Positions 6,424 to 37,699 of a stretch of 64,000 nt of DNA are shown piece by piece. The stretch comes from Lama guanicoe (Eukaryota): positions 1,196,112 through 1,260,111 of the forward strand of contig MU053792.1 of assembly GCA_013239625.1 (NCBI GenBank), given 5' to 3'. A program made the translations under genes and the position numbers. The notes beneath the pieces were generated by a model. It saw nothing but the letters and a program-made list of their open reading frames with translations, had not been told where the DNA came from and made no database searches. Within the stretch, counting starts at the first letter, position 1. Each line of letters starts with the position of its first letter.

Positions 6424-7800
6424 GGTGGGGAAACTGCAGCTCCTAGCACGGGGGGTGGGGTGGGCGGTGGGGCTGAGTGGGCGCTGTGCAGGGGGTGGCT
6501 GCGAGGCGCCCTGTCGCAGGGCAGATCCTGGGGGTGGAGGTGGGCGAGGACCTGATGCTTCTCTTCCCTGCCCCCGTTTGTGTTTCCTCGCAGATCGGCC
6601 CGTCCCAGGGGGAGCTGCGGCCACCCCCGCGCCGGAGGAGGGTGGGGAGGTCGTTCCCTCGCCTCCTCCGGGCGGCGGGAAGGAGGCGGGGGCAGCCAGG
6701 GCTGGGGCGGGTGGCCTGCGGTGGGAGCCCGGCCGGCCCCGCTGGGACTCTGAGGACAGGTGCCTGCCAGACCGCGGGCCAGCGGCCGCACCACAGGCTT
6801 CCTGGAGGAGGAGAAGGCGACGCGGGGGAAGATGCGCGCCAAGCAGAACACCCTCCCGCACCCCCCACCCCCGCCCTCCACGCTGGGGGCACCGGTGGCG
6901 CAGCCGGGAAGCTCCCCGCGGCTCCGGGCACCTCGGCTGCGGGGGCCAACGAGCTCAGTAACAACCTCCCGGGTGGCGCCGCCGACCCTGCCGCCCGGCC
7001 CCGGGCCGTGAACTGCGCGGTGGGCCCGGGGCCGCAGAGCAGCGCCGCCCCGGCCAGGGCAGCCGGAGGACCAGTCCCCCGCCGCCGCCGCCGCTTAGCG
7101 GGCAGCGCCGCCCCGGGCGACGAGGAGGAGCGGGACAGCGCCCCGGAGAAGGGCAAGAGCACAGGCCCCAGCGCCAGGAAAGGCGAAGGGCAGACGGAGA
7201 CGAGGAAGCTGCGGGAGGAGCGGCGCTCCGGGTCTGGTAAGCATCCCCGCTGGGCAGAGTGCTTAGAGGAACCTGAAGGTGATGAAGCTGGGCAGACACA
7301 GTGGAAACGAGAAGATGCAATTACACCCCAGAACACGGTGCAGAAGGAGGCTCTAAGCTTATTAGATCCACGTAGTTCCTACCTGTTACACTTAGAGGCA
7401 GATCTAAAAACACAACCATTACCTCTGAAGATGTCTCCAGTATAGATACCCCCGAATAGACAGAAGTGGGTTCAGCAGGTAACAACAGGATGCACATGCT
7501 TAGTGGTAAGAGAAAGGCAAGAAAACTTAAAACTTGTGAGACTAATGCAAGATAAAGAGGAAGTGATCGGAAAACTCAAAGAGGAAACTGACTTGTTAAA
7601 TAGAGACCTTGTTAAATAGATGACATAGAAGATGAACAACTAAAGCAGGAGAATAAAACTCTTTTGAAAGTTGTTGGGCAGCTAGCAAGGGAGAAGATTC
7701 ATGGCTCAGTGTGGGAAAAAAATTTAAAAACTACTGATCGAATGTTGTGGTTAATGCTAGGCCAATATTCCTCTGCAAGTATCTGTATTTATTTCTAGAA
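6424..7800 (+). pseudogene. PAWR: PAWR (Par-4) processed pseudogene
   Basis: Colinear peptides match recalled PAWR: TTGFLEEEKATRGKMRAKQN, ANELSNNLPGG, PEKGKSTGPSARKGEGQTETRKLREERRS, AECLEEPEGDEAGQTQWKREDAITPQNTVQKEALSLLDPRSSYLL, VVRERQENLKLVRLMQDKEEVIGKLKEE and EQLKQENKTLLKVVGQL. There are no introns in the CDS. ATG has become CTG at 6750, and there are frameshifts, an internal deletion and a short duplication near 7592-7620. The 3' boundary is approximate, and no poly(A) or TSD was identified. Confidence 0.93.
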
Positions 7801-10529
7801 AGTAAATTTCTAGACAGTGCTGCCCACTGTCACGGTGGTGTTCCAGGCTCAGGCAGTGCCTTTGGCTGTGAGGTGCTGTCTCCCTGGGGTGGTTTACCCT
7901 TAGGTGTGGGGCAGGAATACTGGTGTTGCCTAGCTTCCCAACCACACTTTGGATGTTGTGCAAACATTGTTAATATTCAGCCTTGAAATGTATTAGTGTA
8001 CTGATTGTCAATAAAAGAAGTATTTTAAATTTTCTACTTAATCCATTAGTAAGTAAAGGAATATTTCGATTCCTTTTTAAGATTATACCAGCTATTAAGG
8101 CTTTTAAAGATCAAGCTCTTTTAAAATGTTTCCTCTATTTCGGTTTATCAGGAACATTTCCAACAATAACCTTTTACATAATGGTACCTGGTGCAGATAC
8201 AGGGGCCTGACAATTCAGGCAAAGCAGGTCATGTGCAGTCCTCTCTCCCAGGCTTAAAATGTATGTGTGTATCACATATAGATTTTTACACTAAAGATTG
8301 AAAAATAAAGTAGGATGTGCTACAATCTGTTTCCCTTTAAAATTTATAACTAACATTGAGATTTTAAAAAGGTTACTTAGATACATGTGCACTACCTTAA
8401 AAAAACTTTGGCTGTTGTCAGTAAAGTGCGAGTATTTGTGCCCATTCAGGAATAATATTTCTTATATCTCCTGAGAATTTGTGGCATAATATATATCCAA
8501 TATCCAAAGTTCTAATGCATTTATGATGTTATTTTCAAAATATTAAGTTTATTATCTTTAAAATGAACATGACTTGCCTCCTGCATTTCTGACCTGAATT
8601 AACTTGGGAATCACTGAAGAAATCATCTCTATTTCATCTTTCTAGAATTGTTATTAATTTTACTGCACTACAATTACCTTTAGAGAAGAAGAGGAAGGCT
8701 TTAGGTGGGTATTTCCAAGGGAATTTACTAAATATAATAGATGAGCACTGTCATGCTTGTTTAAGTAGTTTAAAACATAGAAAATTAAATATCAGGGGCA
8801 GATACATGAAACAATGTATTCTTAAGGTTAAAAAACCTACTTCAGTTACATGTGGTTTATGTTTTCTGGGTTAATTTGGATTTTTATAACTAGAAATTAA
8901 AATGCAAGTTTTGAGTCCATCAATACTTTGTTGAAAACAATGCAAATCAATGTAATAGCATGTTCATATGTCCAACACCAGAAGCTAAGATAGGAAGGAA
9001 CGTGGGTTTGATAATCTGATGTCATAGACAATATTCATGTGTACATTGAGTGTCATCTTTTTTGTGGGGTTTTTGATCTTGACTCAGTGCCTAGTAAGTT
9101 CCATGCCGTGTTGGCACTTTTTAATAACTATTCTTGATGTTGTTAATAACCTGTTACAAGATTCAGGCATATATATACATATTTTTTAACCTCCCAAATA
9201 TTTTATTTATTAATTTATTTGAATACGATAAGTTTGGTATATAACATGTGAATGTAAGGTGTATAGTGTGTTATTTTGATATATGTATTTATTACAATAT
9301 AGTTGTCAGGCACATATTTGCATCTTGCAATATAAAAAAAACCAAACACATCAGCTTTTCATTGGGGGGAATGTATTAAATGAGAAGGAGCTAGCATTAA
9401 AATAACATGTTAAAGTCTGGTCACACATTGTCTCATTGTGTCTGAACCATTCCTAATACGTAACAGTAACTTGACTTCTTTTGCATTGGAACTATGCTCT
9501 CATAAATAAAGGACCCTCTCATTGATTAGGACTGTCACTTGTATGCCTTACCTGAGAACTAGTGACACTTTTTGGTGGTTGTTTCAATAGGCTGAAAACA
9601 TGGTACTAATAGGCAGCAAACAGTTTACTCATCATGTGCATGAAAAAAGGCACTTTCCCCCATGCTGTTTTCTCCAAGTTGGCTGTTTCATTCTCAGTAT
9701 AAAGACTTGAACCATCGCCCAAGAAAACCTGACCCCATATTGTTTTTTTTTATTTTTGTTTTACTGAGCTAGAGTCTCAAGTGTGTTAAAGTTGTCTCTC
9801 CATACCCCACCCAAAAAAAGTAATTACATATGAGTATGTGAGAGAAATATGGTTGAGGGGGTTATATTAAATTTTCATGCTTACTCTTTCAGTAAGTAAC
9901 TGGGTAGACAATTATAGATATGATAGAAGCTTTAAAAAAATGCTCATGGATCAGCCCTTCTGTCTAGCAGTGTGTAGTGTGTGTCAGTGCTGTCTTAAGA
10001 GTGCTGACTTAAGTACAATTAGCCAGTCTAATCTGAATACTTCATTCAAAAGTACTTTGTGTATTAACTATGCAGCCGTTGTACTTTGGGTCTGGTTAAT
10101 GGGGACTACTGAGTTTGCTGCAGCACTTACTGACTGGCGATGAAAGCTCTGATGCATGTTGGGAAATGTCTTACAGTTCACATGAGGCCTTCCGCTATTC
10201 TCTTAAACTCCTTGCTTGGTTCCCTCTTGGCCTTTATTGGGGCCAGCAATTACCCGTTCTCTTGTGTGTTTGGTTTTGTCTTTCCCCATTAGATCGTCTC
10301 TGATGACAGGGAGTGGATGCTTGTAGCTCATTCACCAACGTCTCTCCAGTTTCTCCCTGGCCTCTTTTCAATATTCAGTAAACATTGCATACGTGCATAA
10401 ATAAATTAAATATTTAATGTCCAAAAAAGGAAGGCCAAAGCAGTGCAATCTGGAGCTAAATGGGACCTAACAGACCTGAATTTGAATCTCAACTTTAGTA
10501 TTAACTAGCTTAATGCTAAGGGTCTTTTT

Positions 10530-10705
10530 GGGGGGGGGTGATGAGAACTTTTAAGATCCAATCTCTTATCAACTTTTAAATATGCAGTACGGTTTATTAA
10601 CTATAGTCACCAGGCTATACACCTCACATCCCCTAGGACTTATTTATTTTATAACTAGAAGCTCGTACCTTCTGACCACCTTCACACATTTTGGCCACCC
10701 CCGTA
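10530..10705 (-). mobile_element. L1MA-like 3' UTR fragment
   Basis: ttattaactatagtcaccagg...ggacttatttattttataact, the reverse complement of motifs in the L1 at about 830-1000. Confidence 0.75.
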
Positions 10706-12149
10706 TCACTATATCGTGAGATACTTTGATAGGCCTTGGGTGACAACTAAATTTTAGGGAACACAGATCATGTTAAAGAGGTGTATTTTTTGATAGCAAA
10801 ACTCTTGATGAATTAAAGTTCCTGAAGAAATTTTTTTTTCCTACAGCCAAAAGACCAAAATTGTCAATGAGTCACTCACAGCTTATTTCAAGAACTTTTA
10901 ACATTCCTATCACATCGGTAAGTGACATATCCCCTTCCCAATGGCCATGTGGTGGCAGACACTGGTTCTGGGTGGGGTGAACGTGGTGAGTGCCAAATGA
11001 GGTCATACTTGTTCCTTCTGGGTCACTGAGCTTCTCTGCCTCTGTCTTAGTTTTCACAACTATAAAACAAAAGAAGTCACACTTGTGTGAAGTGTTTCTG
11101 AGTGCTTCTTTAAGGACAAATTGAGATCATGGATGTGAAGGCATGTTATATTTTTAAAATATTATATGAGTAAAACATCATCTCCCAACCTTAACTAGAA
11201 AAACAAGTGAGGAAAAAATGTGAATACAATGAAGAGAACTTGAGAAAGTTCCAGCATGCTTTATTAGTGCCAAGGTTAGCCCCCATTCTCCCACAAACAA
11301 AAATGGTGGGGGAGGGGCGAATTGGAAAATGACTGTGAAAGGAGACAGCAGAAAGATTGTTTTGTAAAATCTGAAGCACACGGGCTGCATTTTCAAGCCC
11401 GATTTGTAAAAGGATGGGCAGTGCTGGTGAAACGTAGAGGGCTTAGCTCTCCTTTAGATTAGAGGCGGGAGAGATGCGAAGCGGCCCAGCACCAGCACCT
11501 GGTGAGAGAGGCTGTCACCTCTCAAATAAGAGAAAGGGGAAAGTCAGCCAGCACTGTAGTCACCTGCTCCCTAGTCTCTTCCTTCTTCCACATGCTCTCC
11601 CAATTCCATCACAAACTGTGCTTAATTGATTGTGTTGCTTTTTAGTTATAAAATTCAGCCCCTCCGAGAACCCCTCCCGTAGACAGGGATTGGGGGAGGA
11701 GGAGTGGGGGGAGGGAAGCCAGAACTTAGTCCATACCCCAGTGACTGCACACTGGAGGCACGTCGCTGTGCAACACAGCCCGGGAGCCGCTTTGTTTATC
11801 AGTGAACTTCCTACTGTGGCCCTGAGATGTAGGTCAGGCTCATTGGAAATAACCAGCCGCGGATCACATGCCGTCTTTATTATATTTCGAGACTGGGTGC
11901 TCTGCTGATTCCTGCACACTGGAGTGCGTCTGCGCTGCAGGAGGGACGCAGGTAGAGTCCCCCATCTATCTTCCTGAGGCTTTCCGGGGTGCTTTCCCAT
12001 CCCCTCAGCCCTCCCTCCTCACCACCATCTCCCCTGCCGTCTTGGCCTCCAGCCTCTCTGTTTAACCAGTGCCTATCCCTCTCTCTCCCGGCTCTGCACC
12101 GCAGAAGAAGACACAGAGGGCTCCTCTTAATAGCTGGGGAGGGCTTGGC

Positions 12150-15100
12150 CTGCAAGAAGAAAGAACTCGCGTATTCCGCTCCCCTCCCCTCTGCGGCTGC
12201 CTCCTGCCACTCAGGAGGTACGACATGTGGCGTGGTCCAATGAGGGCTCTCTCACAGGACCTACGCCAGTGGGCGATGGGCGGAGGCGGGACGCGCTCCG
12301 CTCTTATATCTCCAGTTCAGGCTGCTGGTGTGAACCAGTTTGGGAGCAAACGAAGGACGGAAGGCGGAGGCACTACGGCTCTCCGCTCTTATGTCCCAGT
12401 TCAGGCCGCTGGGGTGAGCCGGCCTGGGCGCGAACGAGGGACGGCTGGCGGAGGCGGGGCGGCTCTCTGCTCCTACGTATCCAGTTCAGGACGCTGAGGT
12501 GAGCCGGCGTTGGCGCGAACGAGGGACGGCGGGCGGAGGCGACACGTCTCTCCGCTCCTGCGTTCCTAGTTGAGGCCACTGGTGTGAGCCGGCCTGGGCG
12601 GGAACGAGGGACGGCAGGCGGAGACTGTACGGTTCTCCACTCCTGGTATCCACGTTCTGGTGAGCTGGTCTCTGCGCGCGCGGGGGAAGGCGGGCGGAGG
12701 CTGGACGGCTCTCCGCTCCTGCGTCTCCAGGCGGCTGAGGTGAGCCGGTCTGTGCGCGAGCGAGGGGCGGAGGCGGGAGGGATCTCCGCTCCTGCGTCTT
12801 CAGGCCGCTGCTGTGAGCCGACCTGGGCGCGAACGAGGGACGGCGGGCGGAGGCGGGAAGGCTCTCGGCTCCTGCGTCTCTAGTTGAGGCCGCTGGTGTG
12901 AGCCGGCCTGGGCGCGAACGAGGGACGGCGGGCGGAGACTGTACGGTTCTCCATTCCTGGTATCCACGTTCTGGTGAGCTGGTCTCTGCGCGCGCGAGGG
13001 ACGGCGGGCGGAGGTTGGACGGCTCTCCGCTCCTGCGTATCCAGGCCGCTGAGGTGAGCCGGTCTGTGCGCGAGCGAGGGACGGCGGGCGGAGGCGGCAC
13101 GGCTTTCCGCTCCTGTGTCTCCAGTTCAGGCCGCTTGAGTGAGCCGGCCTGGGCGCGAACCAGGGACGGCGGGCGGAGCCGGCACGGCTTTCCGCTCCTG
13201 CTTCTCCAACTCAGGCCGCTGGTGTGAGCCGGCCTGGCCGAGGTCGTGGTGGGGCCGGCGTGGGCGGGACGACTCCCGCTCCGGCGTCTGCATTTGGGGC
13301 CGCTGGTGTGAGTCGGCCTGGGCGCGAACGAGGGACGGCGGGTGGAGACTGGACGGCTCTCCACTCCTCCGTATCCACGTACTGGTGAGCCGGTCTGTGC
13401 GCGATCGAGGGAGGGCGGGCGGAGGCGGGACGGCTATCCGCTCCTGCGTCTCCAGTTTAGGCCGCTGGAGTGAGCCGGCCTGGGCGCGAACAAGGGACGG
13501 CGGGCGGAGGCGGCACGGCTCTCGGCTCCTGCGTCTCTAGTTGAGGCCGCTGGTGTGAGCCGGCCTGGGCGTGAACGAGGGACGGCGGGCGGAGACTGGA
13601 CGGTTCTCCACTCCTGGTATCCACGTTCTAGTGAGCTGGTCTGTGCGCGCGCGAGGGACGGCGGGCGGAGGTTGGACGGCTCTCCGCTCCTGCGTCTCCA
13701 GTTTAGGCCGCTGGAGTGAGCCGGCCTGGGCGCGAACGAGGGACGGCGGGTGGAGACTGGACGGCTCTCCACTCCTCCGTATCCACGTACTGGTGAGCCG
13801 GTCTGTGCGCGATCGAGGGAGGGCGGGCGGAGGCGGGACGGCTATCCGCTCCTGCGTCTCCAGTTTAGGCCGCTGGAGTGAGCCGGCCTGGGCGCGAACA
13901 AGGGACGGCGGGCGGAGGCGGCACGGCTCTCGGCTCCTGCGTCTCTAGTTGAGGCCGCTGGTGTGAGCCGGCCTGGGCGTGAACGAGGGACGGCGGGCGG
14001 AGACTGGACGGTTCTCCACTCCTGGTATCCACGTTCTAGTGAGCTGGTCTGTGCGCGCGCGAGGGACGGCGGGCGGAGGTTGGACGGCTCTCCGCTCCTG
14101 CGTATCCAGGCCGCTGAGGTGAGCCGGTCTGTGCGCGAGTGAGGGACGGCGGGCGGAGGCGGCACGGCTCTCCGCTCCTGCGTCTCCAGTTCAGGCCGCT
14201 GCTGTGAGCCGACCTGGGCGCGAACGAGGGACGGCGGGCGGAGCCTGCACGGCTTTCCGCTTCTGCGTCTCCATTTCAGGCCGCTGGAGTGAGCCGGCCT
14301 GGGCGCGAACCAGGGGCCGCGGGCGGGGCCGGCACGGCTTTCCGCTCCTGCTTCTCCAACTCAGGCCGCTGGTGTGAGCCGGCCTGGCCGAGGTCGTTGG
14401 GGGGGCCGGCGTGGGCGGGACGGCTCCCGCTCCGGCGTCTGCATTTGGGGCCGCTGGTGTGAGTCGGCCTGGGCGCGAACGAGGGACGGCGGGCGGAGAC
14501 TGTACGGTTCTCCACTCCTGGTATCCACGTTCTGGTGAGCTGGTCTGAGCGCGTGCGAGGGTAGGCGGGCGGAGGCTGCACGGCTCTCCGCTCCTGCGTC
14601 TCCAGGCCGCTGAGGTGATCCGTTCTGTGTGCGAGCGAGGGACGGCGGACGGAGGCGGGAGGGCTCTCCGCTCCGGCGTCTCCCGTGGAGGTCGCTGGTG
14701 TGAGGCGGCCTGGGCGCGAACCAGGGACCGCGGGCGGAAGCTGGACGGCTCTCCGCTTCTGCGAATGCAGTTGTGGCGGCTGAAGTGAGCCGGCCTGGGC
14801 TTGAACGAGGGACGGCGGGCGGAGACTGGACGGCTCTCCACTTCTCTGTATCCACGTTCTGGTGAGCCGGTCTGTGCGCGATCGAGGGATGGCGGGCGGA
14901 GGCTGGACGGCTATCCGCTCCTGCGTCTCCAGTTCAGGCCGCTGGGTGAGCCTTCGTGATCGCGTACGTGGACGTCGTTCGGTGCTGCCCGGGGGCCCTT
15001 GTCGCGCATCCCTACAGCAGTGCCAGGCGCGCTTTGCTGTCCCGTAGAGAGCGCCGGGCCCTGTCTGCGGAGGGCGCCCGAGAGGTGCTGTCTGTCGACC

Positions 15101-15330
15101 TCATTCGTTGCGTGTAAACCCCGCGCCTTGCTTTCAAAGGTCTGAGGTCTGCGCTGTGGAAGAGAAGGAATACTTGCCGCAGCTGATTTCAGCGAAAAAG
15201 CCTGGATCCATCGTTTGAGCAGCTCTGCGCCTTTTGGCTGAAGGTAGGACTGGCCCTCTGAGGTGGGCAGGCCGCTGGCCCCCTCTTAAGCGCGTCGTGG
15301 TTCGTGAAGCCACGGTGGGGAGGACCCCTG
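12150..15330 (+). promoter_or_regulatory. CpG island and candidate promoter spanning the array
   Basis: Very high CpG density, CCAAT at 12237 and a GGGCGG box in most monomers. CpG-rich unique sequence continues to about 15330, with a donor-like AAG|GTAGG at 15243. Confidence 0.6.
12278..14952. repeat. CpG-rich tandem array, about 33 monomers of 73-85 bp with higher-order structure
   Basis: Consensus is approximately gtgagccggcctgggcgcgaacgagggacggcgggcggaggcggcacggctctccgctcctgcgtctccagttcaggccgctggt. GTGAG-like anchors recur at 12414, 12499, 12584, 12660, 12740, 12813, 12898 ... 14862, 14946. Confidence 0.97.
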
Positions 15331-16399
15331 TCTCCTTGGCGTAAACTGTCCCTGAAGATGCTCCAGAGCCGAGGACAGAGCCCGATGTCTGAATGGCAGA
15401 TGCTGCCACCCTGCCCTCCACATCTGAAATTGGCAAGACCAAACCTGGTAGATGTAAGGGCAGTGGAGATGTGCCCTGTTAGGTTCACTGATGGAGGAAC
15501 CTAACAGTGACAGGGTTATTTTCACTCCGCAGAGGCAAGGGAGATCAGTTTGGAGTGAACCCTGATAAATGTAGTGTTTTAAGAGCTTCTTAGTTATAAA
15601 TCAGCATTTCTTTTCCTTTTCCTTCTTATTTTTCTGTCTCTTGTTTTTTTCTTCCTTCCTAGTGATTTTAATATCCGTTAGTTTAATTACAGTCTTTCGT
15701 ATGAAAAGTCTTGGGAGAAACCTAGATTAAAAGATGCAGGTTCATTTGTGAATAGGGAAATGGCTAAAGTGCTTATCAGTTTATTTGAAGTGTGGTGAAT
15801 GGGGGCCCTGGGAGATCTGGTTCCTGGGACCCTGGGAGATCTGGTTCCTGGGGTCGCTCTACAATTGATCAGCTGTTTGACCAAGTGTGCATTTTCTTTT
15901 GTGTACCTGTATTGTTAAAAGAAATTTCATTCCCCGGGGAACATGTCTGTTGCTTTCTTTTGAAAGGTTGTTTAAACACATACGAATAATCTCTCTTGAC
16001 ACTTGCTCTCCATTGTTTCCTCCAAGGTCCTGGTAACATTAGTCTGCACCAACTGCCTCACTTTCTCAGTTTCCGTTTCCGTGACCCTTCAGTCTGGCTT
16101 CTGTCCTCATCATTGCCCTGAAACCAGAGACTCGAGTGGGCATGTGTCCTAATGGCCAGGTCCAAGGCTGCCAAGCGCTCCACCTGGTTTTCCTCTTGTC
16201 TGTTTCTCACCAGCCCTCAGCATCCTGTCTCTCTCCTCCCCACCACAGCACACACACGCTGTCATTGTGATTCATTCAGGATCAAAGTCTGCCTGTGTCA
16301 CATCTTTTATAATATTCAGTTGGGCAGCTGTCTCTGACACCAGCAGAGGGGAGGGGCCCCACCTTGGTACGTCCAGGGGAGGTGAAAGTCCAGGCTACC

Positions 16400-17100
16400 C
16401 CAATGCGTGCCTTGACACTTCTCTTGGCAGGAGACAGGGAAGCACCTTTTTGCTGCTCCCCGTGTGGTCTTAGAGACCCCAGGAGGGGTGGGGAGGAAAG
16501 TTCCAGCAGGAGTGGCGCCTCCTCTGACACCAGCATGGCTTGGGAGAAGGATGCTTCGGTGCTGCTCCTGGGGGTGGACCTCCTGCATCTCCATGTGGCC
16601 TCCGTCATCACTGGGGTGGACGTTAAGCCCCTGTGCCCACTCAGCCCTCCTGACTGGAAAGGGTACCTCTGTGCAGCTGGGTGAGGTTGGAAGTTTGGGC
16701 TCCTCTAACCTGGCTTGACAGGGGTGAGCGAACATGAGACACTGTCTTTTGTTTTCAGTTTGGTTTTCTGTATTGTTTGGTTGGGGAAACATGCTCTTCT
16801 CTCAAAGTTGTCTGTCTTGCTAGGTGCCCTCTTTCTAGGCCTGTGGCGAGAGAGAGTAGACTTTTCTTGAGACTCCATTTTTGTCTGTTTCTATTGATGC
16901 TTCTGGGTAGCCAGCTTTTCCGGTACCCACGTTGGCATATAAGAAGCACAAGAAAAAAACAGGGAAACCACTGCCATGCCATTCCTGGGTCTCGTGGTTC
17001 CCAGCCAGCCTGCTTTCTTCTTTCCACCGTTCAAAAAGTCTTCTATGTTTATCTTATATATAGTATCCAGTCCCTCTTCTTTTGTGTGTGTTAATTTTTC
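16400..17100 (-). mobile_element. Ancient L1 5'-region fragment
   Basis: agaaaaaaacagggaaaccactgccatg...cccagccagcctgctttcttctttccacc resembles antisense old L1M 5' ends. Confidence 0.5.
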
Positions 17101-17643
17101 TTTATAAAATTTTCTTGTGAACACAGGTTAGGTCTTTTACATTAATATTTCATTAACTAATGTAAGAATGAGCATGACTAGGATAGATCCACCTGGGTAA
17201 TGGGCACAATAACTGATGACATTTCTTGGTTTCTCTTAAGTGTACAGTCTAGATTGAGGCTCTTTGTTTCCACAGTGGCTGTAGAAGAGAAGGGAGTTTT
17301 AGATGTACTTTCCAGAAACCCTTGGAAGTGACTACAGTGTCACCAGCTTTTCTTGTGCTCTTGTATGTTTGAACACATGACTTGTTCTATTTTTAAGAAA
17401 TTTAGCTTAATTGGAATTATATGTTGACACCAGTTGGTTTTTTTAAAGCTACAAACATTGTAAGACAATATATAAATAGATTGTATTATGATCCTTTTCT
17501 TACAGAAGTGGTGAATTTCAATAAAATAAGCTCACTATAAAATAATTTTTTAAAAAAATTATATAGAGTCTTGGTTAATAGCTGATCTTCCAACGAATAT
17601 TAGCAAATACCCACTCATGTTATATCACATTCCTTTTCTCAAG

Positions 17644-17945
17644 TGTGACCCGCACGACAGGCCAATAAATCGGGAGGCGAGGTGTTGGGGCAAGGAATAA
17701 TTACTTTATTCAGAAAGCTGGCAGACCAAGAGGATGGCATAGTAATGTCTTGGAGAACCATCCTCAAGTCAGAATACAGGCTCTTTTTATACTAAAAAGG
17801 GGAGGGGTGTGATTGGTTGTTGGAAACTTCTTGGTGCTTTACAAAAGGTGCAGAGCTGACAAGACTAAGCCTAGAAAGCAGGGCACAGGGTTAAAACTAA
17901 CAGAAAAGATTGAATGTGGAGTTAGATTTATTCTCCTCTGTTACA
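17644..17945 (-). mobile_element. Internally deleted solo ERV LTR (same family as 30126, 31289 and 63682)
   Basis: Shares gacaggccaataaat...ggggcaaggaataat.actttatt and aaaaggtgcag...caagactaagcctag with the other copies. Confidence 0.85.
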
Positions 17946-18689
17946 TGATGACAGTACTGATGAGGAAGGAGTGTCCAATCTGGAGTCCTCTTGGGTCTCT
18001 CCCTGGTGACTTCTGCACTCAAGGCTGCCTCTTTCTGAGCAGAGAGCCCTCTGTTGTCTCTAAAGAACACAAGGCCTCATGTGCCTTGAAATTGTTCATC
18101 AGAGGCATAACGAGAAATGGAGGGATACAGAGCCATTAGCCCCTTGAATTCACTAGGATGGATGTAAGTACCCATAGTTCATCAGCTACCCTGTCAACCT
18201 GAGGACACAGTGAAGGCCCTGGGGTAGCAGGAGTCACATCACCTTACATCTGGGTAGTAAGAACCTAATGAGAACCACTTGCCAGCAACAGCCCTAGATG
18301 TTGGATGCACAAACAGAACTCTACTGAGAAGAGCATGATGGATCCTCCAACTTCCTATAGGCAAAGGTCATGCTCCCAGTAGCTCAAAAATGTTACACCT
18401 CTTTACCATGTAATTTCCTATAATTGACAAGATTTTAAAACATGCATGGACAAAGGCCAAATCCTCATAGCAGTTGGTTAACAAGTGCTTTGAAAATTAA
18501 TTGGGAAATCTCACTGTCATCTAATACTTGATAAATTGTTACCTGTTCTGAGTAAAATCTATGGAGATTTAAAAGGAAGAAAAAAAATCAAGGGATTTCA
18601 AAATGTTAAGAAAGGATTTGGATGATTTCAAACACTAGTTTCCATGTGACCAGTGTTTCCCTGGGGGCAGGTGGAAGTTATTAAAATCT

Positions 18690-19328
18690 CTTGACTATTC
18701 CAACAGCTCCCTGGCTGGTTTCCACACTTGTCCTCCTCCTGTTTTCAATGTAGTAGCCATAGTGTAATTTTAAAAAATAAAGTCAGATTAAGTTACTTTC
18801 CTCCTCAAAACCCCATCACACTTTGGTGTCCTATCACACGATCTCAGATTCTTGCCACAGCCCGTATACGTCTACAAACAGGTAGTTCCCTTGCAAACTC
18901 ACCTGCAACATTCTTTCCTACTCACTGTGTTCCAGCCACATTTGCGGTGCCTTTAACACACCCAGAACACTCCACTCTCAGGGCATTTGCACCTGCTATT
19001 CTCTCTGCTTGGTAATCTCTTCCCCCAGATAAAGATGTGCTTACCCCCCCCTTACTTTTTAGGGTATTTACCCCAAATCAGCTTCTTAAAGAGAAAGATG
19101 CTGACCAATGGCCTTGTAAGAACACCCTGCAGTCATTCTATCCTCTGATTTTGCTTTATTTCTTTCAAAGCGCTATGACTACCTGATATTACATAATGTA
19201 TTTGCTTTGCTTAGTTGCTGTCTCCCTAAAATAGAATAAATGTTCTGTAAGCTCAAGAAATGTAGGTTTCCAGTGTAAGGAATAATGCCGTAATAGCCAC
19301 TCAACAAATATTTATTGAATAAGTGAAC
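18690..19328 (+). mobile_element. L2 3' fragment
   Basis: ctcagggcatttgcacctgct and the terminal cactcaacaaatatttattgaataagtgaa. Confidence 0.75.
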
Positions 19329-20715: not shown

Positions 20716-20766
20716 TGTGTATGTGTATATGTGTGTGTGTATGTGTGTGCATATACATACGTATAT
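20716..20766. repeat. (TG/TA)n microsatellite
   Basis: Directly visible. Confidence 0.85.
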
Positions 20767-20939
20767 TTGATTATCTGGTGACGTAAGACAAGAACAGGTA
20801 GTGAAGGGATTATTATTCTTATGCCCATTATAGAAATGAAAAAATCAAGGTTAAAAAATTCAACTAAATTATCCAAAGTTGTTACCCAGTGCAAACTCGT
20901 TCTGCACCCAGCAAAGGTGCCCTCAGGGCACAAGGGCAG

Positions 20940-22660
20940 CAGCAGTGGCTGCAAGGAGAAGAGGGCTGCCTTAGGTGAGCTGGTGGTTTTGCTTCCCCTG
21001 CCGGGTGGCCTGGCCTGTGGGTGGGCTCTGCAGTCCCAGGTCGTGAGACACACCTGTCCCACTCAGCCTGCTGGGGAGAGGGGCAGAGCGGTCAGGGTGG
21101 GGAGCTGCTGCCTCTGGGAGCTGGTCCATTTCTCCTCTCCCCCGTGGTCTCGCCTGGGGGCAGCCTTGGACTCCAGGTCAGCTTGCTCCTGGGAGACGGG
21201 CGCGGTGCAGTAAGGGCGGCTGCGGCGGTCTCTGCTCCAGGTGAGCCGATCAGTTTACTCCCCTCTTCAGCGAAGCCTGACCTGCGGGCGGCCTCTGATG
21301 CCTAATTCGCCAGGCCCGCCTCCAGGTCAGCGTGTCCCATCAAGGTAGGCCCGGTGCGGTGCGTTCAGGGTGCGGGGGTGGCGAGGCGGCGTCCGCGGCG
21401 GTAGGGGGCCTGCCGAGGTGGAGCGGGTCCATTTACTCCCATCTCTCCCGTGGCTTGGCCAGGGGAGCGCTCTATGTTGCCCCAGGTGCCATGACACACC
21501 TGTCCCTGCCTGCGTGATCCTGGGAGGCGGGCCGGGGCTTTTGGGGTGGCGGCAAGGAGAGTGGGGCTGCCCTGGCGAGCTGGTCCTATTTCTTCTGTCC
21601 TCCGTGGCGTGGCCTGTCCTGGGGACGGCGTCTGCCGCCCGTGATTCGCCTAAGTGTCCGACGCCAGGTCAGTTTTCTCCTGGGAGAAGAGCGTGGTGTA
21701 GTAAGGGCTGCGGAGGTGGGCGCCCCAGGGGAGCCGTTTGGTTTACTCCCCTGTCCCAGGAAGCCTGGCCTGGGGGCGTCCTCTGCTGCATATTTCGCCA
21801 GGGCTGTCTGCAGGTCAGCCTGTCCCAGCGAGGTGGGCTCGGTACGTTCAGGGTATGGAGTGGCTGTTAGTGTCCGCGGCGGTAGGGGACCTGCTGATTG
21901 GCAGCGGGTCCATTTGGTCCCATCTCTCCTGTGGCTTGGCCATGGGAGCCGTCTCTGTTTCCCCAGGTGCCATGACACATGTGTCACTGCCAGCCTGATC
22001 CGGGTAGTCGGGCTCGGTGCTTTTGGGGCTGTGGTGTTGGCGGCGGCAGGGCGAGTGGGGCTGCCTTGGCGAGGTGGTCCCATTTCTTCTTCTCTGCACC
22101 TTGGTGTGTCCTAAGGGCGGCCTTTCCTGCCCAAGATTCGCCTGACACTCTCCTCCTGGTCAGGTTGCTGCAGGGAGGCGGGTGAGGTGCGTTCAGTGGT
22201 CAGAGAGGGGAAGGGGCTGCCCCTGGCGAGCTGGTGGATTAGCTCCCATCTCCCTGGCAGCCTGGCCAGAGGGCGGCCTCTTCTGCCCCTCATTTGCTGG
22301 TTGCCCTTCTCCAGGTCTTACTGTGGGCAGTGGGGTGGTGGCGGGGGTATGGGAGCGTGCAGGGTGAGCTGGTGGATTAGCTCCTGTCTTCCCTGTGGCT
22401 TGGCCTGGGGGTGGCTTCTGTTGCCCCAGGTCAAAAGACAGATTCTCTGACAGCCTCACCACCAGACTCAGGGCACGTTGCCCTTAGGGGGCTGCCCCTG
22501 GCAGTCGTTCAGTTTGTTCCCATCTCCCCTGCAGCCTGGCACAGGGGCAACCTTTGCTGCCCCAAGTTCACAGGATGCCCAGTCTCCAGTTTACCTGCAT
22601 TTGGGAGGCCTGCGAGGTTTAGTCAGCCCAAGGTGTGGGCTCTCCCCAGGGGAGGGGCAG
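20940..22660. repeat. Degenerate GC/CpG-rich tandem repeat, about 4 units of 445-480 bp with internal subrepeats
   Basis: cccaggt...gacaca-like anchors at about 21036, 21481, 21962 and 22425. gggctgcc(c/t)tggcgag-like motifs at about 20962, 21564, 22058, 22214 and 22488. Confidence 0.8.
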
Positions 22661-24514
22661 AACTCTCTTGGTCTCTTTTGTCTTTATTCTTCAGCAAAGG
22701 GGTCAATGGAACCTGTTCATCACCTTGAGAAAGTGTAGCCTGTGTCGTGAAAGAGCTGCTGGACAGGGTGGTTTCTAGGTTGGTTTTCACATCAGCTGAT
22801 GCTCCAGGCAGGCAGGAAGGCTGTTACTCAGAGCTTCTTAGCCTGGACTAGGGGGATGTTCCCACCATCCTCACCGTGCTTTTTCTAAATGTGTTACTCC
22901 CCCTCTTTTTCCTAGGTGACATTTTAGGTTATTGGGTCACAGATTGCTGGCACACTCATCCCTGTTCTCAAACATCTTTTAAAGTTTGGTGAAGTGACAA
23001 GTAGTGGAAGAAGAGTTACTGATAAGGTAAGACCACTTAAATTTGCATTAAAGCCGCATTCTGTCCGTCTTTCTCAAATGATTTTTCTCTGATTCTAAAC
23101 CCACAGTCTAGTGAGTGTTGTCCTCCTGTGTAAGTCATTGATCTTCAAATCATATTTGTTGAGTGGGCGACAAGATTTGTTCATCAGGCTTATCCCTGAA
23201 AGGAGAAACTGAGGCTTTGAAGCAGAATTCCTTGTCTGATGTCACCCAGGCAGTCATAATAGGAGATAGATCTGATATAAAAGTCCCTCAGCTGCCTGAA
23301 CTGCAAAGCTTCTGGGATTACTGATCCCTGAAATGTAGGTGATTCTTGATAATAATTTGGAGGTTAGTTAACATGATCAGGTTTTTCCAGTCCTGTAAAT
23401 GGGTTCCGTGGCCTCAGCCCTGGTAGAACTTGGTCATAAGGGCCGTGTTGCAAGGAGTGGGTGGCAAGGCAGAGGTGTAAGAGCTGGAATCACTGAGATT
23501 CCACACTCGCCAAACACAGACTCTAGAGCCTAATTGTTGTCAGGTTCTGCTGTGGATTTGAGAGTGTGTTGAGACATGATTCTTGCCACTGCCTGGGTGG
23601 AAGTAACTTTTATATAAACCTGGAAAGGATGGTAATGAAAGTAGATGGGCTGTTACATTACTCAGTTTACCCAGGCTCACTCTTCCAGGCACTTGTGGGA
23701 CTAATGGAGAGTTGTGTTACTCACTCATTCACTGATTTATTACCCCTGAATTGATCTTTGTCCCACAGTTAATGAAACAAGGAATCAGGAACCTGAGTTT
23801 TGTCCCCTCTCCTATCACTGATTGTATCGATCAGTCGGGTGACCTGCGTATGCATTTGTGAAATGGTGTGGTACTTCTTGCCCTATGGGACTGCGCTGAT
23901 CAGTTTTGAGAATCAGGTGAGATACGTGAATAGGACAGTGCTTTGACAAACATGAGACCTCTTTATATTGTCACCTGGGAACTTCTCTCTCCATAGTTAG
24001 CTCTGTATTATTTTTGTTGTTGTATTTTATCCAGTGTTACTAAAAGTTTTACTTTAAAGGGATCCAAATTAGCTCTGTTCACTTGTTTCCAGATCTGAAA
24101 GCTTCAGTTTTAAGAGTATCTGTTTGATTTTTCTTAAAAATACATTCTAGTATATATCTCATGTGAAAATCTTTATCCTGTTAGCTATTTCCCCATCATT
24201 TTGTTATTTTCTTGAATGTATTAAAAGTAACTATTTTATAGCCTTTATTGTTAACTCTGATGCCTACATCACCTGTGGGTTTGGATCTATTGTCTAGTGT
24301 TTCTTATTCTCATAGTGTCAGTCATGTAGTCTTGACATGTTGCATGTCTAGAAATTCTTTATTACATGGCAGACATTGTGAGTGAAAAATCCATATGTTG
24401 TCTTCTGTGAGAGGTTTTCTACCTTCCTGTTAGGCAGATAGGGTGAGGGACTGATCATCTCAATCCAGTCAGGCGCTGAGGTGGGTCAGGACTGAGGTGC
24501 CTTTTTTCTTCAAA

Positions 24515-27678: not shown

Positions 27679-28442
27679 TGTGGTGGCAGAATAATGTGCC
27701 CCCCCCGCGGGGTAGCCACCTATGACATGTTACTGTACACGGCCAAAGGGATGACACATATTTTAGGATAAAAATCTTAGAGGACTTCTGTCTTCTAAAT
27801 TGTCTACTAGTTAGCCTTTTAAACCGATGATACATTATTAAAGATTAGTGCCGGGCCACAAATAAACAGGAGTCATATAATCTCACCAGATGTCCTGAAT
27901 GTGGAAAGACTTAAGAAAGAAAAACAAAAAGCCGTTCACAAGTGTCTTGAACCTTTAATTGCTCATGAGAGGAAACATTACCCATGGTGAGTGTCACAGC
28001 CACATACATAATGCCTGAGTGGGGTAGGAAAAGGGGATCCTGATATGAGAAAATAGGGAGAGTAGCCTGGATTGCCCAGGTGGGCCCAGTGTAATCACAG
28101 GGGTCCTTAAAAGCAGAGGACATTTCCCAGTTGAGCTTAGGGTCAGAGGGAGGTGTAGCCATGGAGCACAAGTTCAGAAAGGCTGCTGGCCATGAAGATG
28201 GAGGAAGTCATGGGGCACAAGCTAAGGAAGGTGGATGACCTCTGGAAACTGGAAAAAAACAAGGAAACACTCTCTTCTAGACCCTCCAGAAGGCAGGCAG
28301 GCACCCTGCTGGTACCTTGAATTATCCCAATGAGAACTGTGTTGGACCCCTGACCTCCACAGCTATAAGGTGATAAATCCTTGCTGGTTTAAGCCATTAA
28401 GTTTCTGGAAATTTGTAATAGTAGTAATAGAAAAGTAACATA
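27679..28442 (+). mobile_element. MLT1 (MaLR) LTR interrupted by an insert of about 270 bp (about 27783-28051)
   Basis: tgtggtggcagaataatg start, cctggattgcccaggtgggcccagtgtaatcacagggtcctta, and terminal ttgctggtttaagccattaagtttctggaaatttgt. Confidence 0.8.
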
Positions 28443-32089: not shown

Positions 32090-33250
32090 AGCGACAACGC
32101 CTGCGGGTGCTAAGTTCTCAGAGTGACAGGAAACTCAGCTCTCCGCGGGGATAGCAGGTGTGATCCCCGTAGAGGTTCTGCAGGGGCCTAGGCTGGGGGG
32201 CTTGACCAGGGAGGTGAAATTTGAGCTGCGGGCCTTGAGAGGTTAGAGAGGGGCGCGGAGGCAGGACTGGCGCCTCCTTTGGGGTGCCCCTGAAGGTAAA
32301 GCTTTTTTCCTCTATCTCACCTACTCTCCTTCCTCCAGATCCCTCCCTACTCCCTCCTACTTCTGTCCACCTCTCTGCCTCTACTTTCCCCCCTCTTCCG
32401 CTCCCAACTTCTCCCTCCCTCGCTTCCCCAGCGTGTCTCTTCTGCGCATGCGCACGGTCAGTGCGGGCTGGACCGCGGGTCCGAAGCGCCAGCTCCGAGC
32501 CGGCATCGGCCGCAGAGGCTGCTCGGTCCGCCGCCCGCCTGGCCGTTGGCTCCTGCCCCGGGCCGGGGCCTCCGGCTGTGGAGTTGTAAGGTAGGGGGAC
32601 TCCGGCGAAGAGGGTCCGCGTATCACAGCCCGCGAGGGCGCACGTGAGCGCGCGTCCAGCTGAGGGGCTCGCGCCAGCCTCCTCTGCCCGCACCGCCTGC
32701 CCCAGCGCCCCGGCCACACCTGTCCAGGGCGCTCGCCTGCCGGGGACCGGCCACCCCCCGTTCCCGGCCCGGCCCGCAGCTGCCGCCGCGTCTCGCCCTA
32801 GCCGGGCTTCCCTCAGTCCGCGGCCGGCGTCCCCTTCCCCTCTCCCGCCCGCGAGTCCTCTCCTCCCGGGTTTCCTCTCCTCGGCCGCCGACCCGTCCCC
32901 GCCCCTGGGTCGGCTGTGTCCGGGACCGGTGGGGTCTGCGGACCCGGGCGGGGGCTGGGACTGGCCTTCGAGCGGGGCTGCAGCCCGCGCCCCCCGCCGC
33001 TTTCCCTGCCCCCCAACCCCGGGGCTGCCCTCCTCTCCCTTTCCCGCTCCTCGAGGTCCAGCTCTGCGGTGTGGGCGCTGCTCCCCGGGCTGAGAGCCTC
33101 TGGCTGTAAAGCCCAGCTTCTCCTGGCGGAGCCTTAGAAAGAGAGCGTGCATTGGTCTTCTCCCTCAGTGTTTCTGCCCCAGGTAAGTACCTTTGAACAC
33201 TTTCGGGTGTTAGGATAGGGGTGCTCGTTGATGTCACGTGTTTTTATAGC
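32090..33250 (+). promoter_or_regulatory. CpG-island promoter, probable 5' end of the TRAPPC9-derived unit
   Basis: CpG-dense. Palindromic NRF1 site TGCGCATGCGCA at 32443-32454, E-box CACGTG at 32641, GC boxes, and donors AAG|GTAGGG (32590/1) and CAG|GTAAGT (33182/3). Confidence 0.75.
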
Positions 33251-34199
33251 GAGAGGGATTACAGTGTTGAAAGCAGGGCTTGGTTCAGTTATAAATGAGC
33301 TGAAGGCGGGAGGCTGTGACATCCTCCATCCTCCCCCCCCTCCCAGGTGTAACCCGTGACCGTCGTTTTTAAAAAGATAGTTACAGTTCCTAACTAGTCC
33401 AGCCCAGCTAGTGTGTGTTAACAGGAACAGCACTACCAGGGGCATTTTGGAGACCCAGGGACATTGCAGTCCTCAAGATCTGGAAAATTTTTGTTTGGTT
33501 TTCTTTTTCTTAAATTGTGGGGCTGACTAGTAGTATAGAGGGAAAAACAGTTGTCAAGGACTATTTTTTTTTCATGTAACAGCTTTATTGTGATACTGTT
33601 CACACACCATGAAGTCCAGCCATTTAAATGGTACAATTCAGTGGCTTTTAGTATATTCACAGTGGTGTAACCGTTATTATTCCAGAATGTTTTCATTGCT
33701 TCAGAAAAACAGTGGAAATGAATGACCTATCCACTCCTCCCCAGCGGTGGTTCTAAAGAAATTTCTTGGCTGTTCCTGACCATAAGTTAATTTGTTACAT
33801 TCCGTGAAAAATCTGGTAGGAATTCTAATCAGAATTGCATTGAATCTATATCAGAATGGGGAGAATTAATGTTTTTATGACATTAACTTTTTCTACCCAT
33901 GAATATATCTGGGACCCTATCTTCATCTCTCTCGAGTCTGGCCGATGGGAGGTGCGCAGTAATTGTTGGGTCTGTGAATGATGAGATTATATATATGGTT
34001 AGTTGCAACTGTAGCCTTTCACAAAAGAGGAAAAACCTCAGTGAAGCTACGTGACTCCTCGATGGTCAGAGTGACAGCCAATGCTGGAGTGATCCAGTGG
34101 ACTTGGTGCTTGTAACCAGAGTTCTCTGCCACCTACAGCTAATGGGATTACAATGTTCTTTATTTTTTTTTTATGGCGTTGCTTTTACTTACTTTTAAA

Positions 34200-34490
34200 A
34201 TTCTTATTTTTGATTGAAGTGTAGTCAGTTTACAATGTTAGTTTCAGGTGTACAGCAGCGATTCAGTTACATATATGCTTATGTACATATATATATTTCA
34301 GGCTGTTTTTATTACATTTCATTATAAGAAATTGAATATAGTTCCGTGTGCTACACAGCAGGCCCTTGTTTATTTATTTTATATATATTAATGTGTATGT
34401 GTTAATCTCAAACTCCTAATCTGTCCCTGCCCCCTTTCCTGCCTGCTAACCACAGTTTGCTTTCTATGTCCATGAGTCTGTTTCTACAAG
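34200..34490 (-). mobile_element. L1 3' UTR fragment
   Basis: ttgaagtgtagtcagtttacaatgttagtttcaggtgtacagc...ttgaatatagttcc. Confidence 0.8.
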
Positions 34491-36699
34491 CGCCGTCTTT
34501 GCTAGTAATACATGCTGGTTGGCTGCTTTCAGTTTCAGTAATTCCATCTTATCTGTGGGCGTTTTTCTCCTGGTGGGCCTGCATGTGGTTTGCACACGTG
34601 GTAATAGAGATCTGTATTTGGGAGAACTCCGGGCCTCTTGTAGTGCCTGGCACGCAGCGCCCGCTGAGCTCATGCTTGAACTGGGAAAAACCATAGTAAA
34701 GGTTGGAATTTGCACTATGGTTCAGACTAGTGGGTTTCTGTAACTTATGTTTAGCCCACCTTAATGTTGGCTGCACCCATACTAGGTAATTTGGTGGAAC
34801 TGCATGGTGTGGCGATGTAGAGACAGGGCCTTGTCTGCTTCTTCTTCCTTTTTTCTAACACTCATTCTCCTGGGCCTCCCAGATCCTCCCCTAGCAGTGC
34901 CCAGGGCTGGCTTGGTGCTGTGCTGAGGCAATATTTGTTATTAAGGCCCTTTCCTCATCTCTTCTGCGCTTCCATTTCCTTCTCTGCACAATGAGGGCTC
35001 AGACTAGATAAGTGCTTTTCAGTTTCTTTTAAACCCATGTCTCCTTTTGAGAAACAGAAAACCCAAATCTCTCCTCCCATCCCAACCCTTCAGATTTTGA
35101 TACGTCCTCCAAGGGGTGACATAGCTCTTTGTGGAAAGTTGATGTGATTTTGGTTCTTTCCAGGTGGTGCAGAAAAGACTCTTCAGAGATTTATTGTACG
35201 GAGGGGGCAGGAGGGGAGCAGTATGTCACACTTTCTAGTGTGAGAGCATTGAAGCAGGGGCTTAGGTTTAATTACAGCCTCTGACATGGCCTCTCTCTAA
35301 TCTTGCACAATGTGATAAACCTGTTTTCCGCAGTTTCTTCATGTGTCAACTTGGGGTGACATTATTTTAGGGTTTTTGTGAGACAATATACACATAAGCC
35401 ATTTGTGTCTCAGTAGAAACATGACCTGTTAGGGAGTCAGGGATTTTTTTTTTTTTTAAAATCTTGTCCATACATAGCACTCTGTTCTATGTGTATTTGA
35501 AGTTCCTGGAGGATGCGAATTGAGTCTAAAGTCCATCATAGGACAGGTGGCCCTGGGTCTGCGTGTCCTAGATTGCCCCCTCCTCCCCAGTCCTCCTCCT
35601 CTCAGTCCAGGATGAAGTTCCCCATTAGAAGTACACACAGGTCTTGTGGAAACAGCTTTTAATTTTATTTAACTGGGGAGGGCTGCTGTCATGATTTCCG
35701 TGGTCAGGTTTTGGTAACATGAAGGCTATGCAGTTGGGGGTTCCTATTTAAGAAAAAGAAAACAAAATTATAAATACAAAATTAGACCTGGGCTGTGGCA
35801 GGGGCTCTTGGAAGTGGGGACCATTAACTTTGTTAGCTTCAGGTGCAGTGGCCTCTGGCCACGAGGACCCATCCTCGTGCTCTGAAGTTGGAGGGACCAG
35901 TGGGTTCACTGGGAATGTTTACTGAGTGTGTCTCATGGGGTGGGCGTTGTCCTGTTTGCACTGTGTGTTCCTTATTTGAGACAGTGAGCTCATTTAATCT
36001 CAACAGCCTCTTTAAAAAATTAGACTTTTTATTTTGAGATACAGTGTAGATTCCCATGCAGTTGTAAGTGGTAATAGGGAGAGAGCTTATGGACTCTTTG
36101 CCCGATTTTCTTTAATGATACCATCTTGCAAAGTTGTGCTACAATTCATTATTAACTCACTAACCTTTTGAGGTTTGTGTTATTACCCTCATTTCTGTTC
36201 ATGATTAAACGGGGGCTTAGAGAAGCACACAGGCCTGCCCAGGTCACCAACATGGTTAGTGCAGAGTCAAGGGTGGAACGTGGGCTTGGGATTTCCAGGC
36301 AGTACCATTATGATGGTCTGAGGCAGGGAGCAGCATTCACTTTGCTTGTTTATTCATTCATTCAACAAACATTTATTGAGTAACCTCCGTGGGTCAGATG
36401 CTTTCATAGGGTTATCTAATTCTTCAGCAGTACTGGGAATCAGGTAATGTTTTCTTTTTTTTATCTGAGAAAATTAGCTCTGAGAGGTTATAAAACCCCC
36501 CAAAGGAAACACAACTCATAAAAGAGGGATAGTAAATGTGTACAGTTCCCCCTTTTTATGCAGGTGGTACTGTAGGCATTTTGCATTTGCAAACTTCCTT
36601 AATCCAGATATATTCTTTTAAGGGAAGTTTTTTTTTAATTGAAGTATAGTCAAGTTTACAGTTGGTCAATTGCAAGGTGGTTTTTTTAATTTTGAATTT

Positions 36700-36849
36700 T
36701 TTAAAAAAATTATTTTTTGACGAGGAGGTAATAAGGCTTATTTGTTTATTTATTTCACTTTTTTTTTTTAATAAAGGCACTGGGGATTGAACCCAGGACC
36801 TCGTGCATGCCAAGCGTGTGCTCTACCACTGAACTGTACCCTCCTCCCC
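36700..36849 (-). mobile_element. tRNA-derived SINE (camelid Vic-1-like)
   Basis: ctggggattgaacccaggacctcgtgcatgccaagcgtgtgctctaccactgaact is an antisense tRNA-like head with A and B boxes, plus a T-rich tail. Confidence 0.85.
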
Positions 36850-37078
36850 AAGGCATGTTTTCTTATCGCCATTATTTTGCAGCTTAGGAGCTCAAGTAGA
36901 TTGGAGTTCAAATCCAGATCTTCTGATCCCACTGTGGTTCTTTTCAGTATATTCTGCTGAGGGGTGGGGAAGCAGTTCCTTTGTTTATTCCTTTATTCAG
37001 CATTTTTGAGCACTGACTTTGCATCAGGGCCTGGCTAGGTGTTGGAAACAGAAAACAAGAAATGACCCTTTTCTGCAG

Positions 37079-37463
37079 CGGATGGAAGCCTAGACCAAGA
37101 GCTACCTCAAGGTCTTGGGGCTTGCGTCACCAACACTGACTGCTTCTTGGCCAAGAACTGGCCGCAGACCTTTGAGAAGCTCTATGTGCAGAGGAGCTGT
37201 GTGACACCATGCTCTATGACTTTCAGCTCTTTGTCTTTGGGCTTCATGGGGAGGTGGCTGAGCAGCTGCGCACCAACATGGCCTTCAAACTACGAGGACT
37301 GCGGGACGGTGGAGAAGAGGGTCGAGGACTTCACTGAGTCACTCTTCATTGTGCTCGAGTTCAAGTGCCTGGATGGGGCCACCAACAAGTCTGGGGACAA
37401 GATCTGCCTCCTCTGCATCCCATTTAAGAAGGAGGACTTGGTGGGACTGGACACAGACAGCAG
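37079..37463 (+). pseudogene. TRAPPC9: TRAPPC9 first coding exon (exon 2) remnant, 5' part lost
   Basis: Frame-corrected: KVLGL/[111 protein letters not shown]. Recalled human: [119 protein letters not shown]. Homology starts at about 37103, and the donor is CAG|GTAAGT. Confidence 0.95.
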
Positions 37464-37699
37464 GTAAGTATCTGGAGGCCCGGCCACCCTGGCTGTGTGC
37501 CAGGTTGCTTACCTACGTCCAGAAAGGGATCGGCAAGAAGGGGGGCTGTCTTGTAGCCAAGGGGGGAGGGAGGTGCAGCCCGCCGGTTTTCAGACGTTTA
37601 AAAATGAACCCGCCTTTGATTCAGAGAGATCCTTTTAGGGTTAGTGTGGACACTTAACTCCCCCTTTTCATCTAGGACCCCTGGTGGGACCCCTGGAGT

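Follow-up and report, generated by a model that had tools for sequence, protein, structure and literature searches.

A 33-unit GC-rich minisatellite derived from a KHDRBS2 promoter duplicate in the guanaco genome

GC-rich variable number tandem repeats (VNTRs) are known from several human promoters, with units of 33 bp in TRIB3, 28 bp in TYMS, and 21 bp in XRCC5, and promoter-derived repeats include the 60/81-bp enhancers of Xenopus rDNA and the duplicated first exons of MAGEA4. In all of these, multiplied promoter elements tune output by copy number; they repeat factor-binding sites or lie far apart, whereas the unit described here is a whole predicted core promoter, repeated 33 times within a pseudogene. 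Mouse L1 5' untranslated regions (5'UTRs; L1Md A, Gf, and Tf) carry tandem monomers of about 200 bp, each with a start site, and by analogy the present array most likely works in the same way. CAGE peaks lie within mouse L1 monomers (PMC6454616), and the monomers add to promoter activity non-linearly (PMC9022269). Unlike these, the array lies outside a retrotransposon, at one locus, and has a host-gene promoter as its source, an 85-bp unit, and a donor-like site in every unit; neither an L1 body nor many genomic copies of the unit were found.

A minisatellite can also multiply a 5' splice-site sequence, a property that the array shares with the 37-bp VNTR in intron 7 of human F7, the copies of which are usable, the most upstream being chosen (Borensztajn et al. 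2006, PMC1557585). The first F7 unit spans the authentic exon–intron boundary and the unit is without a promoter, whereas the site repeated here is cryptic and lies within a 5'UTR, the authentic donor being found about 300 bp behind the array, at 15244. Since the donor-like site is repeated together with a predicted start, every start would come with a first donor of its own.

Described camelid satellites include alpaca VpaSat01-13, with monomers of about 1.8–8.5 kb, mostly on many chromosomes; these satellites and the pseudogene-rich repeat blocks of alpaca resemble the present locus in being camelid, duplication-rich, and populated by many gene fragments (PMC13751797). The published unit size sets the array (85-bp unit, 2.7 kb, one locus) apart from a dispersed satellite of this type, and KHDRBS2, TRAPPC9, and PAWR, from which parts of the locus derive, were not found in the text and supplement examined of that paper. 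A tandem-repeat review covers repeat-initiated RNAs and repeat effects on splicing, and a unit of core promoter plus donor was not found in the part consulted (PMC13196383). Promoter VNTRs and monomeric promoters are known, as are VNTRs that multiply donors; for a 33-fold host-gene unit made of a whole predicted core promoter and a donor-like site we found no precedent, nor any report of this locus, in full-text searches of an open-access library.

Structure and origin of the array

We analysed a 64,000-nucleotide stretch of Lama guanicoe DNA, here called the window (GenBank assembly GCA_013239625.1, contig MU053792.1, positions 1,196,112 to 1,260,111). An earlier note, made from the letters of this stretch, had pointed to a tandem array of about 33 copies, which is present (table 1): Tandem Repeats Finder reported a period of 85, 32.7 copies, and 74% matches, together with higher-order periods of 326 and 411. 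Cutting the array at a GTGA anchor yielded 33 units with no double-length gap between anchors, so every unit has GTGA. The array is 70% GC with a CpG observed/expected ratio of 1.0, and 29 of the 33 units are distinct, at a mean pairwise identity of 80%. Its head-to-tail units in the 10–100 bp range, kilobase scale, single locus, interspersed variant units, and signs of recent turnover are those of a GC-rich minisatellite or VNTR.

Table 1. Features of the locus (positions within the window)
Feature	Position	Strand	Remarks
Broken PAWR-derived retrocopy, upstream neighbour	6555..10180	+	left limit from ORF start
Copy of KHDRBS2 upstream region	10182..12277	+	82-86% to C8364, 89% to C8194
Single CCAAT box	12237..12241	+	77 bp ahead of initiator-like A of first unit (12314)
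33-unit array (73-85 bp each): GC box, initiator-like site, cryptic donor-like GTGAG	12278..14952	+	
Youngest internal duplication	13314..14103	+	382 bp exact repeat at offset 408
Last unit	14892..14952	+	intact initiator-like site plus -1 G donor (TGG/GTGAGC at 14946)
Old KHDRBS2 5'UTR behind last unit	14953..15155	+	
Part of old KHDRBS2 5'UTR, hypermutated in window copy only	14953..15140	+	sense-strand G>T bias, fading within the following 350 bp
Dead KHDRBS2 exon 1 coding part	15156..15243	+	start codon lost, frameshifts, stop
Authentic KHDRBS2 exon-1 donor AAG/GTAGGA, intact	15244..15249	+	about 300 bp behind last unit
KHDRBS2 intron 1 remnant	15244..17594	+	internal deletion about 4.2 kb
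Second decayed GC-rich repeat with GGTGAG donors	20850..22600	+	part of many-copy duplicon
Candidate non-coding duplicon exon	22916..23026	+	acceptor and donor intact in window
TRAPPC9-like pseudogene	32100..37464	+	CpG island and frameshifted exon remnant of duplicon

The unit had been described as a GC box, an initiator-like tract, and GTGAGC. Its two ends hold up, with the GC box GGGCGG in 27 of the 33 units and GTGAGC in 28 (GTGAG in 31); the middle does not, the initiator-like consensus BBCABW occurring at the ancestral spacing in 13 units, CCAGTT in nine, and CTCCAGTTC in only four. Deletions of 5 and 8 bp in some units take out or displace the initiator-like site, and no deletion touches GTGA. 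Just three units, among them the last, combine an intact initiator-like site with a donor-like site preceded by G at -1. As had been noted, a single CCAAT box stands just ahead of the array, the only one within 12001–15300; it is also present in the KHDRBS2 parent and in one sister duplicate (C8194). The array has two sense ATGs, and there is one at 12391. A coding role was rejected: the four matches of a sense 129-aa frame were all to unrelated repeat proteins, and an antisense 315-aa frame had no relative among 8000 candidates. An Rfam search of the window returned three tRNA-like matches only (36772–48816), with no structured RNA at the array.

The unit and both of its flanks match three other contigs (C8364, C8180, and C8194), on which the flanks are colinear and the unit occurs once. 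A pattern search of the genome allowing two mismatches found 26 matches in the array, one on each of these contigs, and none for the control, and each single-copy paralogue shares 87–88% identity with the array consensus. In C8364 an intact start codon follows the unit at a distance of about 190–270 bp; exon 1 codes for the Qua1 start of a KHDRBS protein, and exon 2, a further 83 kb on, is 95% identical to named KHDRBS2 proteins. By this homology the source of the array unit is the predicted core promoter and 5'UTR start of the protein-coding gene KHDRBS2 (SLM-1), taken from a pseudogenised duplicate of its exon 1; the parent, unlike the array locus, carries the unit once and has kept its reading frame. 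The earlier view that a single-copy start unit had been multiplied is borne out, and the monomer is neither a dispersed satellite nor an L1 5'UTR unit, either of which would have spoken against that view; the supposed non-coding source gives way to a protein-coding gene.

With +1 placed by motif only, on the A of CCAGTT, the CCAAT box falls at -77 and the unit is predicted to span the core promoter and the start of the 5'UTR, from about -38 to +47. GTGAGC sits inside the parent 5'UTR as a weak cryptic site, and a cat gene model (P0049) has one unit-equivalent that is read straight through GTGAGC to the start codon. The proposal that the unit includes the exon-1 donor of the gene therefore fails, that donor being the one at 15244. 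The last GTGAG does run into CpG-rich unique DNA as had been observed, but this is ancestrally KHDRBS2 exon 1 and not an intron.

The colinear 5'-end homology and broken frame identify the window copy as a KHDRBS2 duplicate pseudogene, with no homology to the parent intron 1 seen past 17594. Lesions of its exon 1 coding part recur identically in both sister duplicates (C8180 and C8194); all three lack the start codon and carry frameshifts, and so descend from one dead duplicate. The hexamer CGGCGG occurs in C8194 at -56 and +28 relative to GT, 84 bp apart, and unit ends bounded by these 6 bp are explained by microhomology. The sister duplicates lie at C8194:208500 and C8180:135130, with a single promoter unit each. 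C6178:53349–54765 matches part of KHDRBS2 intron 1 only (86–92%), and C1724:1659031–1659147 has a Qua1 match in a 423-codon open frame without the intron of the three KHDRBS genes, possibly an intact retrocopy.

Genomic setting and candidate downstream exon

The upstream neighbour is recognizable as PAWR-derived by a match of 7446–7616 to the PAR-4 chain 5FIY (E 8.5e-13), and its 3' part (7818–10177) matches C8676 at 81–85% and C8194 at 88%. Its 5' part is CpG rich, with a 296-codon open frame (6555–7445), and its 3' end passes into the KHDRBS2 upstream region with no poly(A) tract in between, at a junction also found in C8194. Beyond the KHDRBS2 intron 1 remnant (about 17594) lies a junction with a camelid duplicon, the nearest copies of which are 94% alike and which matches about 40 scored contigs among 157–208 candidates. 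A 1.5-kb stretch of C8194, compared for adjacency to this duplicon, gave no match. The duplicon, with at least 40 copies, contains the 5' part of a TRAPPC9-like pseudogene (18168–37464 and beyond, at 49700, 54499–54690, and 57262), the exon remnants of which match several camelid 'TRAPPC9-like' gene models.

Within the duplicon is a second GC-rich repeat with an internal duplication of about 490 bp, and with units of about 145–157 bp in four paralogues (L069, L070, L073, and L075). It resembles the array in plan, and both stand upstream of the candidate exon. Kinship between this repeat and the 85-bp unit was rejected (best BLAST E 0.049, 12 loci). The acceptor that the earlier note had singled out at 22916 is present, and is the best of five pyrimidine-tract matches in a crude scan of 15245–23100. 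The exon that it would open has a mean identity of 93% among 12 copies, neighbouring 110-bp bins having 84–94%, and its AG is kept in 10 of the 12 copies and its GT in seven, so there is no clear constraint on this exon.

Several other repeats are scattered through the window. A dispersed repeat occurs at 17640–17945, 30125–30651, 31290–31803, and 63682–63996, two of its copies forming a 530-bp inverted pair (85% identity, 640 bp apart). Short tRNA-like repeats on the minus strand (36772–36843, 39895–39965, 43008–43091, and 48745–48816) are probably a tRNA-derived SINE, and small young tandem duplications are found at 15802–15852 (24 bp, 2.1 copies) and 56737–56905 (90 bp, 1.9 copies).

Retention and upgrade of the donor-like site

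In a tree built from all 33 units, none of 158 parsimony changes over 84 columns falls in GTGA. P is 0.0004 for this window taken singly; allowing for the best 4-base window at any position it becomes 0.036, or 0.003 if gaps count as states. Among 80 five-base windows GTGAG has changed least, but the motif was picked for testing because of its conserved look, and correction brings its P to 0.25, or 0.037 when gaps are included. In contrast, the bases at the three positions ahead of GT are the most variable of the unit. The ancestral T at -1 is now G in 13 units, A in eight, and still T in 12, and only the change to G improves pairing with U1. By pairing energy, a crude stand-in for a splice-site score, 12 units pair at -8.1 to -9.7 kcal/mol, near the authentic donor (-9.2), against -5.4 for the parent site. 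The -1 G gains trace to about four events, not 13. Together, the invariance of GTGA and these gains are suggestive of selection, short of proof, and they keep alive a donor role that may be secondary and acquired.

Motifs of the downstream core promoter (MTE/DPR) lie around +17 to +22, where GTGAG sits. A downstream element of this kind is disfavoured as the reason for the conservation because GTGA is kept in 20 units with broken initiator spacing. The idea that the GT has long been conserved in the parent gene was also rejected: camelid and cat have Val across the site, and a sheep-hybrid gene model has Ala, which would imply GC rather than GT in this one automatic model.

It is possible, though we think it unlikely, that the array is a selected cassette in which each unit is kept as a promoter plus a U1 site. 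A start in any unit would then meet a 5' splice site within 15–100 nt, U1 would shield Pol II from early termination, and short first exons would be spliced to a common downstream exon; given such shielding and splicing, camelid-specific non-coding RNA output would scale with unit number. The motif retention above fits this reading, as do deletions that spare GTGA yet remove or shift the initiator-like site, and the 12 units that approach authentic U1 pairing. The Restrictor complex is blocked by a strong 5' splice site even without splicing (PMC12211998), and the downstream duplicon too has an unrelated GC-rich repeat with GGTGAG donors followed by the same exon. Against the cassette stand the choice of the motif for its conserved look and its corrected P, the variability of the bases ahead of GT (the eight changes to A bringing no pairing gain), the 20 of 33 sites without a -1 G, the small number of gain events, and the rarity of units that join initiator and good donor. 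The target exon lacks clear constraint, having lost its GT in 5 of 12 copies, and the repeated donors of human F7 stay silent (PMC1557585). A stronger form of the same idea, a Pol II polymer of promoters and U1 sites in which a cryptic GT of the 5'UTR persisted and was improved repeatedly, with starts shielded and transcripts spliced onto duplicon RNA, is likewise a tentative proposition; it adds that very high germ-line activity would have rewritten a quarter of the bases behind the array, as G>T on one strand.

Mutational record and interpretation

CpG columns of the array have a mean of 2.46 changes, compared with 2.13 in other G/C columns, and their changes comprise 19 transitions and 19 transversions; there is therefore no methylation signature. 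The unique flank behind the array has a CpG observed/expected ratio of 1.14 and few CpG transitions. As far as sequence composition can tell, the constitutive methylation that the earlier note had set against its own proposal left no trace in the germ line.

The flank carries a second and more unusual record. In a four-way alignment of the window, the parent, and the two sister duplicates, 14952–15140 has 48 changes private to the window copy in 186 columns, the other copies having 6, 9, and 8. Private changes number 18 in 237 and then 19 in 357 columns further downstream, and 31 in 1068 and 13 in 248 upstream. The excess over the sister copy (48:6) exceeds that in distant flanks (50:27; P 0.002), where the window copy is about twice as diverged as the sister. 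On the sense strand of 14952–15140, 23 of 77 G changed to T and only 1 of 46 C to A (P 9e-5), and the flank changes include four adjacent GG>TT pairs. The same bias within the array is weak (28 vs 11, P 0.065), and the few upstream transversions run the other way (C>A 3 vs G>T 0, small numbers). Over 14953–15500, private changes reach 26% in the first 190 bp and fade over 500 bp. Selection for a U-rich intron start was considered as a cause and rejected: T rose from 12–15 to 43 and GGG fell from 8–11 to 3, yet only two TTT runs exist, and such selection is in any case not separable from mutation bias in the flank.

Our preferred reading, to which we give a probability of roughly 0.55, is that the locus is a GC-rich minisatellite of promoter origin that lacks methylation and probably undergoes germ-line transcription, its non-coding RNA running into the camelid duplicon, with no assigned function. 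A camelid segmental duplication took the KHDRBS2 promoter together with exon 1 and a portion of intron 1, and the copy lost its reading frame and was duplicated once more. In one descendant, as we propose, two CGGCGG microhomologies delimited an 84–85 bp piece that includes the GC box and the predicted start site and reaches 45 bases into the 5'UTR; this piece would have been duplicated in tandem, and unequal exchange would have amplified it into 33 variant units with higher-order blocks. We infer that the minisatellite remains an unmethylated CpG island from which Pol II most likely fires at several phased positions, as in mouse L1 monomers. The one-sided G>T scar that follows the last unit would then stem from strong germ-line transcription, during which the G-rich non-template strand is exposed. 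The transcripts would be non-coding and could be joined by splicing to the exon at 22916, either at the improved GTGAG sites or at 15244. Were the GTGAG donors in use, scanning of the F7 kind would couple every start to the next GT that can serve, and the resulting spliced non-coding RNAs would be almost identical. This course of events would require no benefit to the animal, and donor retention could reflect weak selection or chance.

The retained donor-like core and the one-strand mutation behind the array hint at a multi-start promoter that still works. Hypermutation at human start sites occurs only with testis expression (PMC13712754), and the start-site mutation hotspot is tied to R-loops and Pol II stalling (PMC12658150). 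However, the main human peak, at +25, comprises all mutation types, and loss of G peaks some 110 nt before the start (PMC13712754). By comparison, these human data do not predict the G>T spectrum of the flank and so count against a transcription scar, as does the weakness of the bias within the array. The restriction of an intact initiator-like site to 13 of 33 units argues against multiple starts, the roughly twofold divergence of the window copy in distant flanks counts against the preferred reading, and the invariance of GTGA is greater than its near-neutral terms would lead one to expect.

We consider it improbable that the array is simply dead, an unstable GC-rich VNTR in a silent pseudogene whose CpG richness comes from recent turnover and whose G>T burst arose by error-prone break repair at the array edge. 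Microhomology suffices for the unit ends, the 382-bp exact repeat attests very recent turnover, the GG>TT doublets suggest clustered events, all three duplicates have lost their coding capacity, and the region lies in a duplicon rich in pseudogenes, of the kind described in alpaca as shaped by genomic context (PMC13751797). Turnover, however, cannot reach the unique flank, which keeps its CpG richness, and the G>T bias is one-sided, following the direction of the gene and fading with distance, and the few upstream transversions are C>A instead. Very improbable is an artefact, namely an array over-expanded in assembly or G>T consensus errors in GC-rich DNA: the long exact repeat and very high GC content would favour it, but the 29 distinct units share variants in a tree-like manner, and six DNA runs from two studies contain 0.64–0.91 of 117 sampled words of 14870–16000 (five of them at least 0.71, three of these five from the second study), no RNA run being listed as containing them. 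Errors at the private G>T sites, which 37% of the 31-mers touch, would leave that 37% missing, so that a wholesale artefact is unlikely, and the ceiling of 0.81 expected if only 14952–15140 were wrong is clearly passed by the best run alone, perhaps the source of the assembly.

The locus has built-in controls in the same genome, namely the parent and two single-copy sister duplicates. A silent array would be an ordinary minisatellite beside a mutational scar that lacks an explanation. An active one would show a dead duplicate giving rise to a new chimeric transcription unit. It would also test directly whether a 5' splice site close to a promoter is under selection for the sake of transcription and not of splicing, and how much mutation start-site activity causes in the germ line. 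Should the polymer of promoters and U1 sites prove true, the guanaco would offer a natural dose-response test of start-site mutagenesis and U1-coupled transcription.
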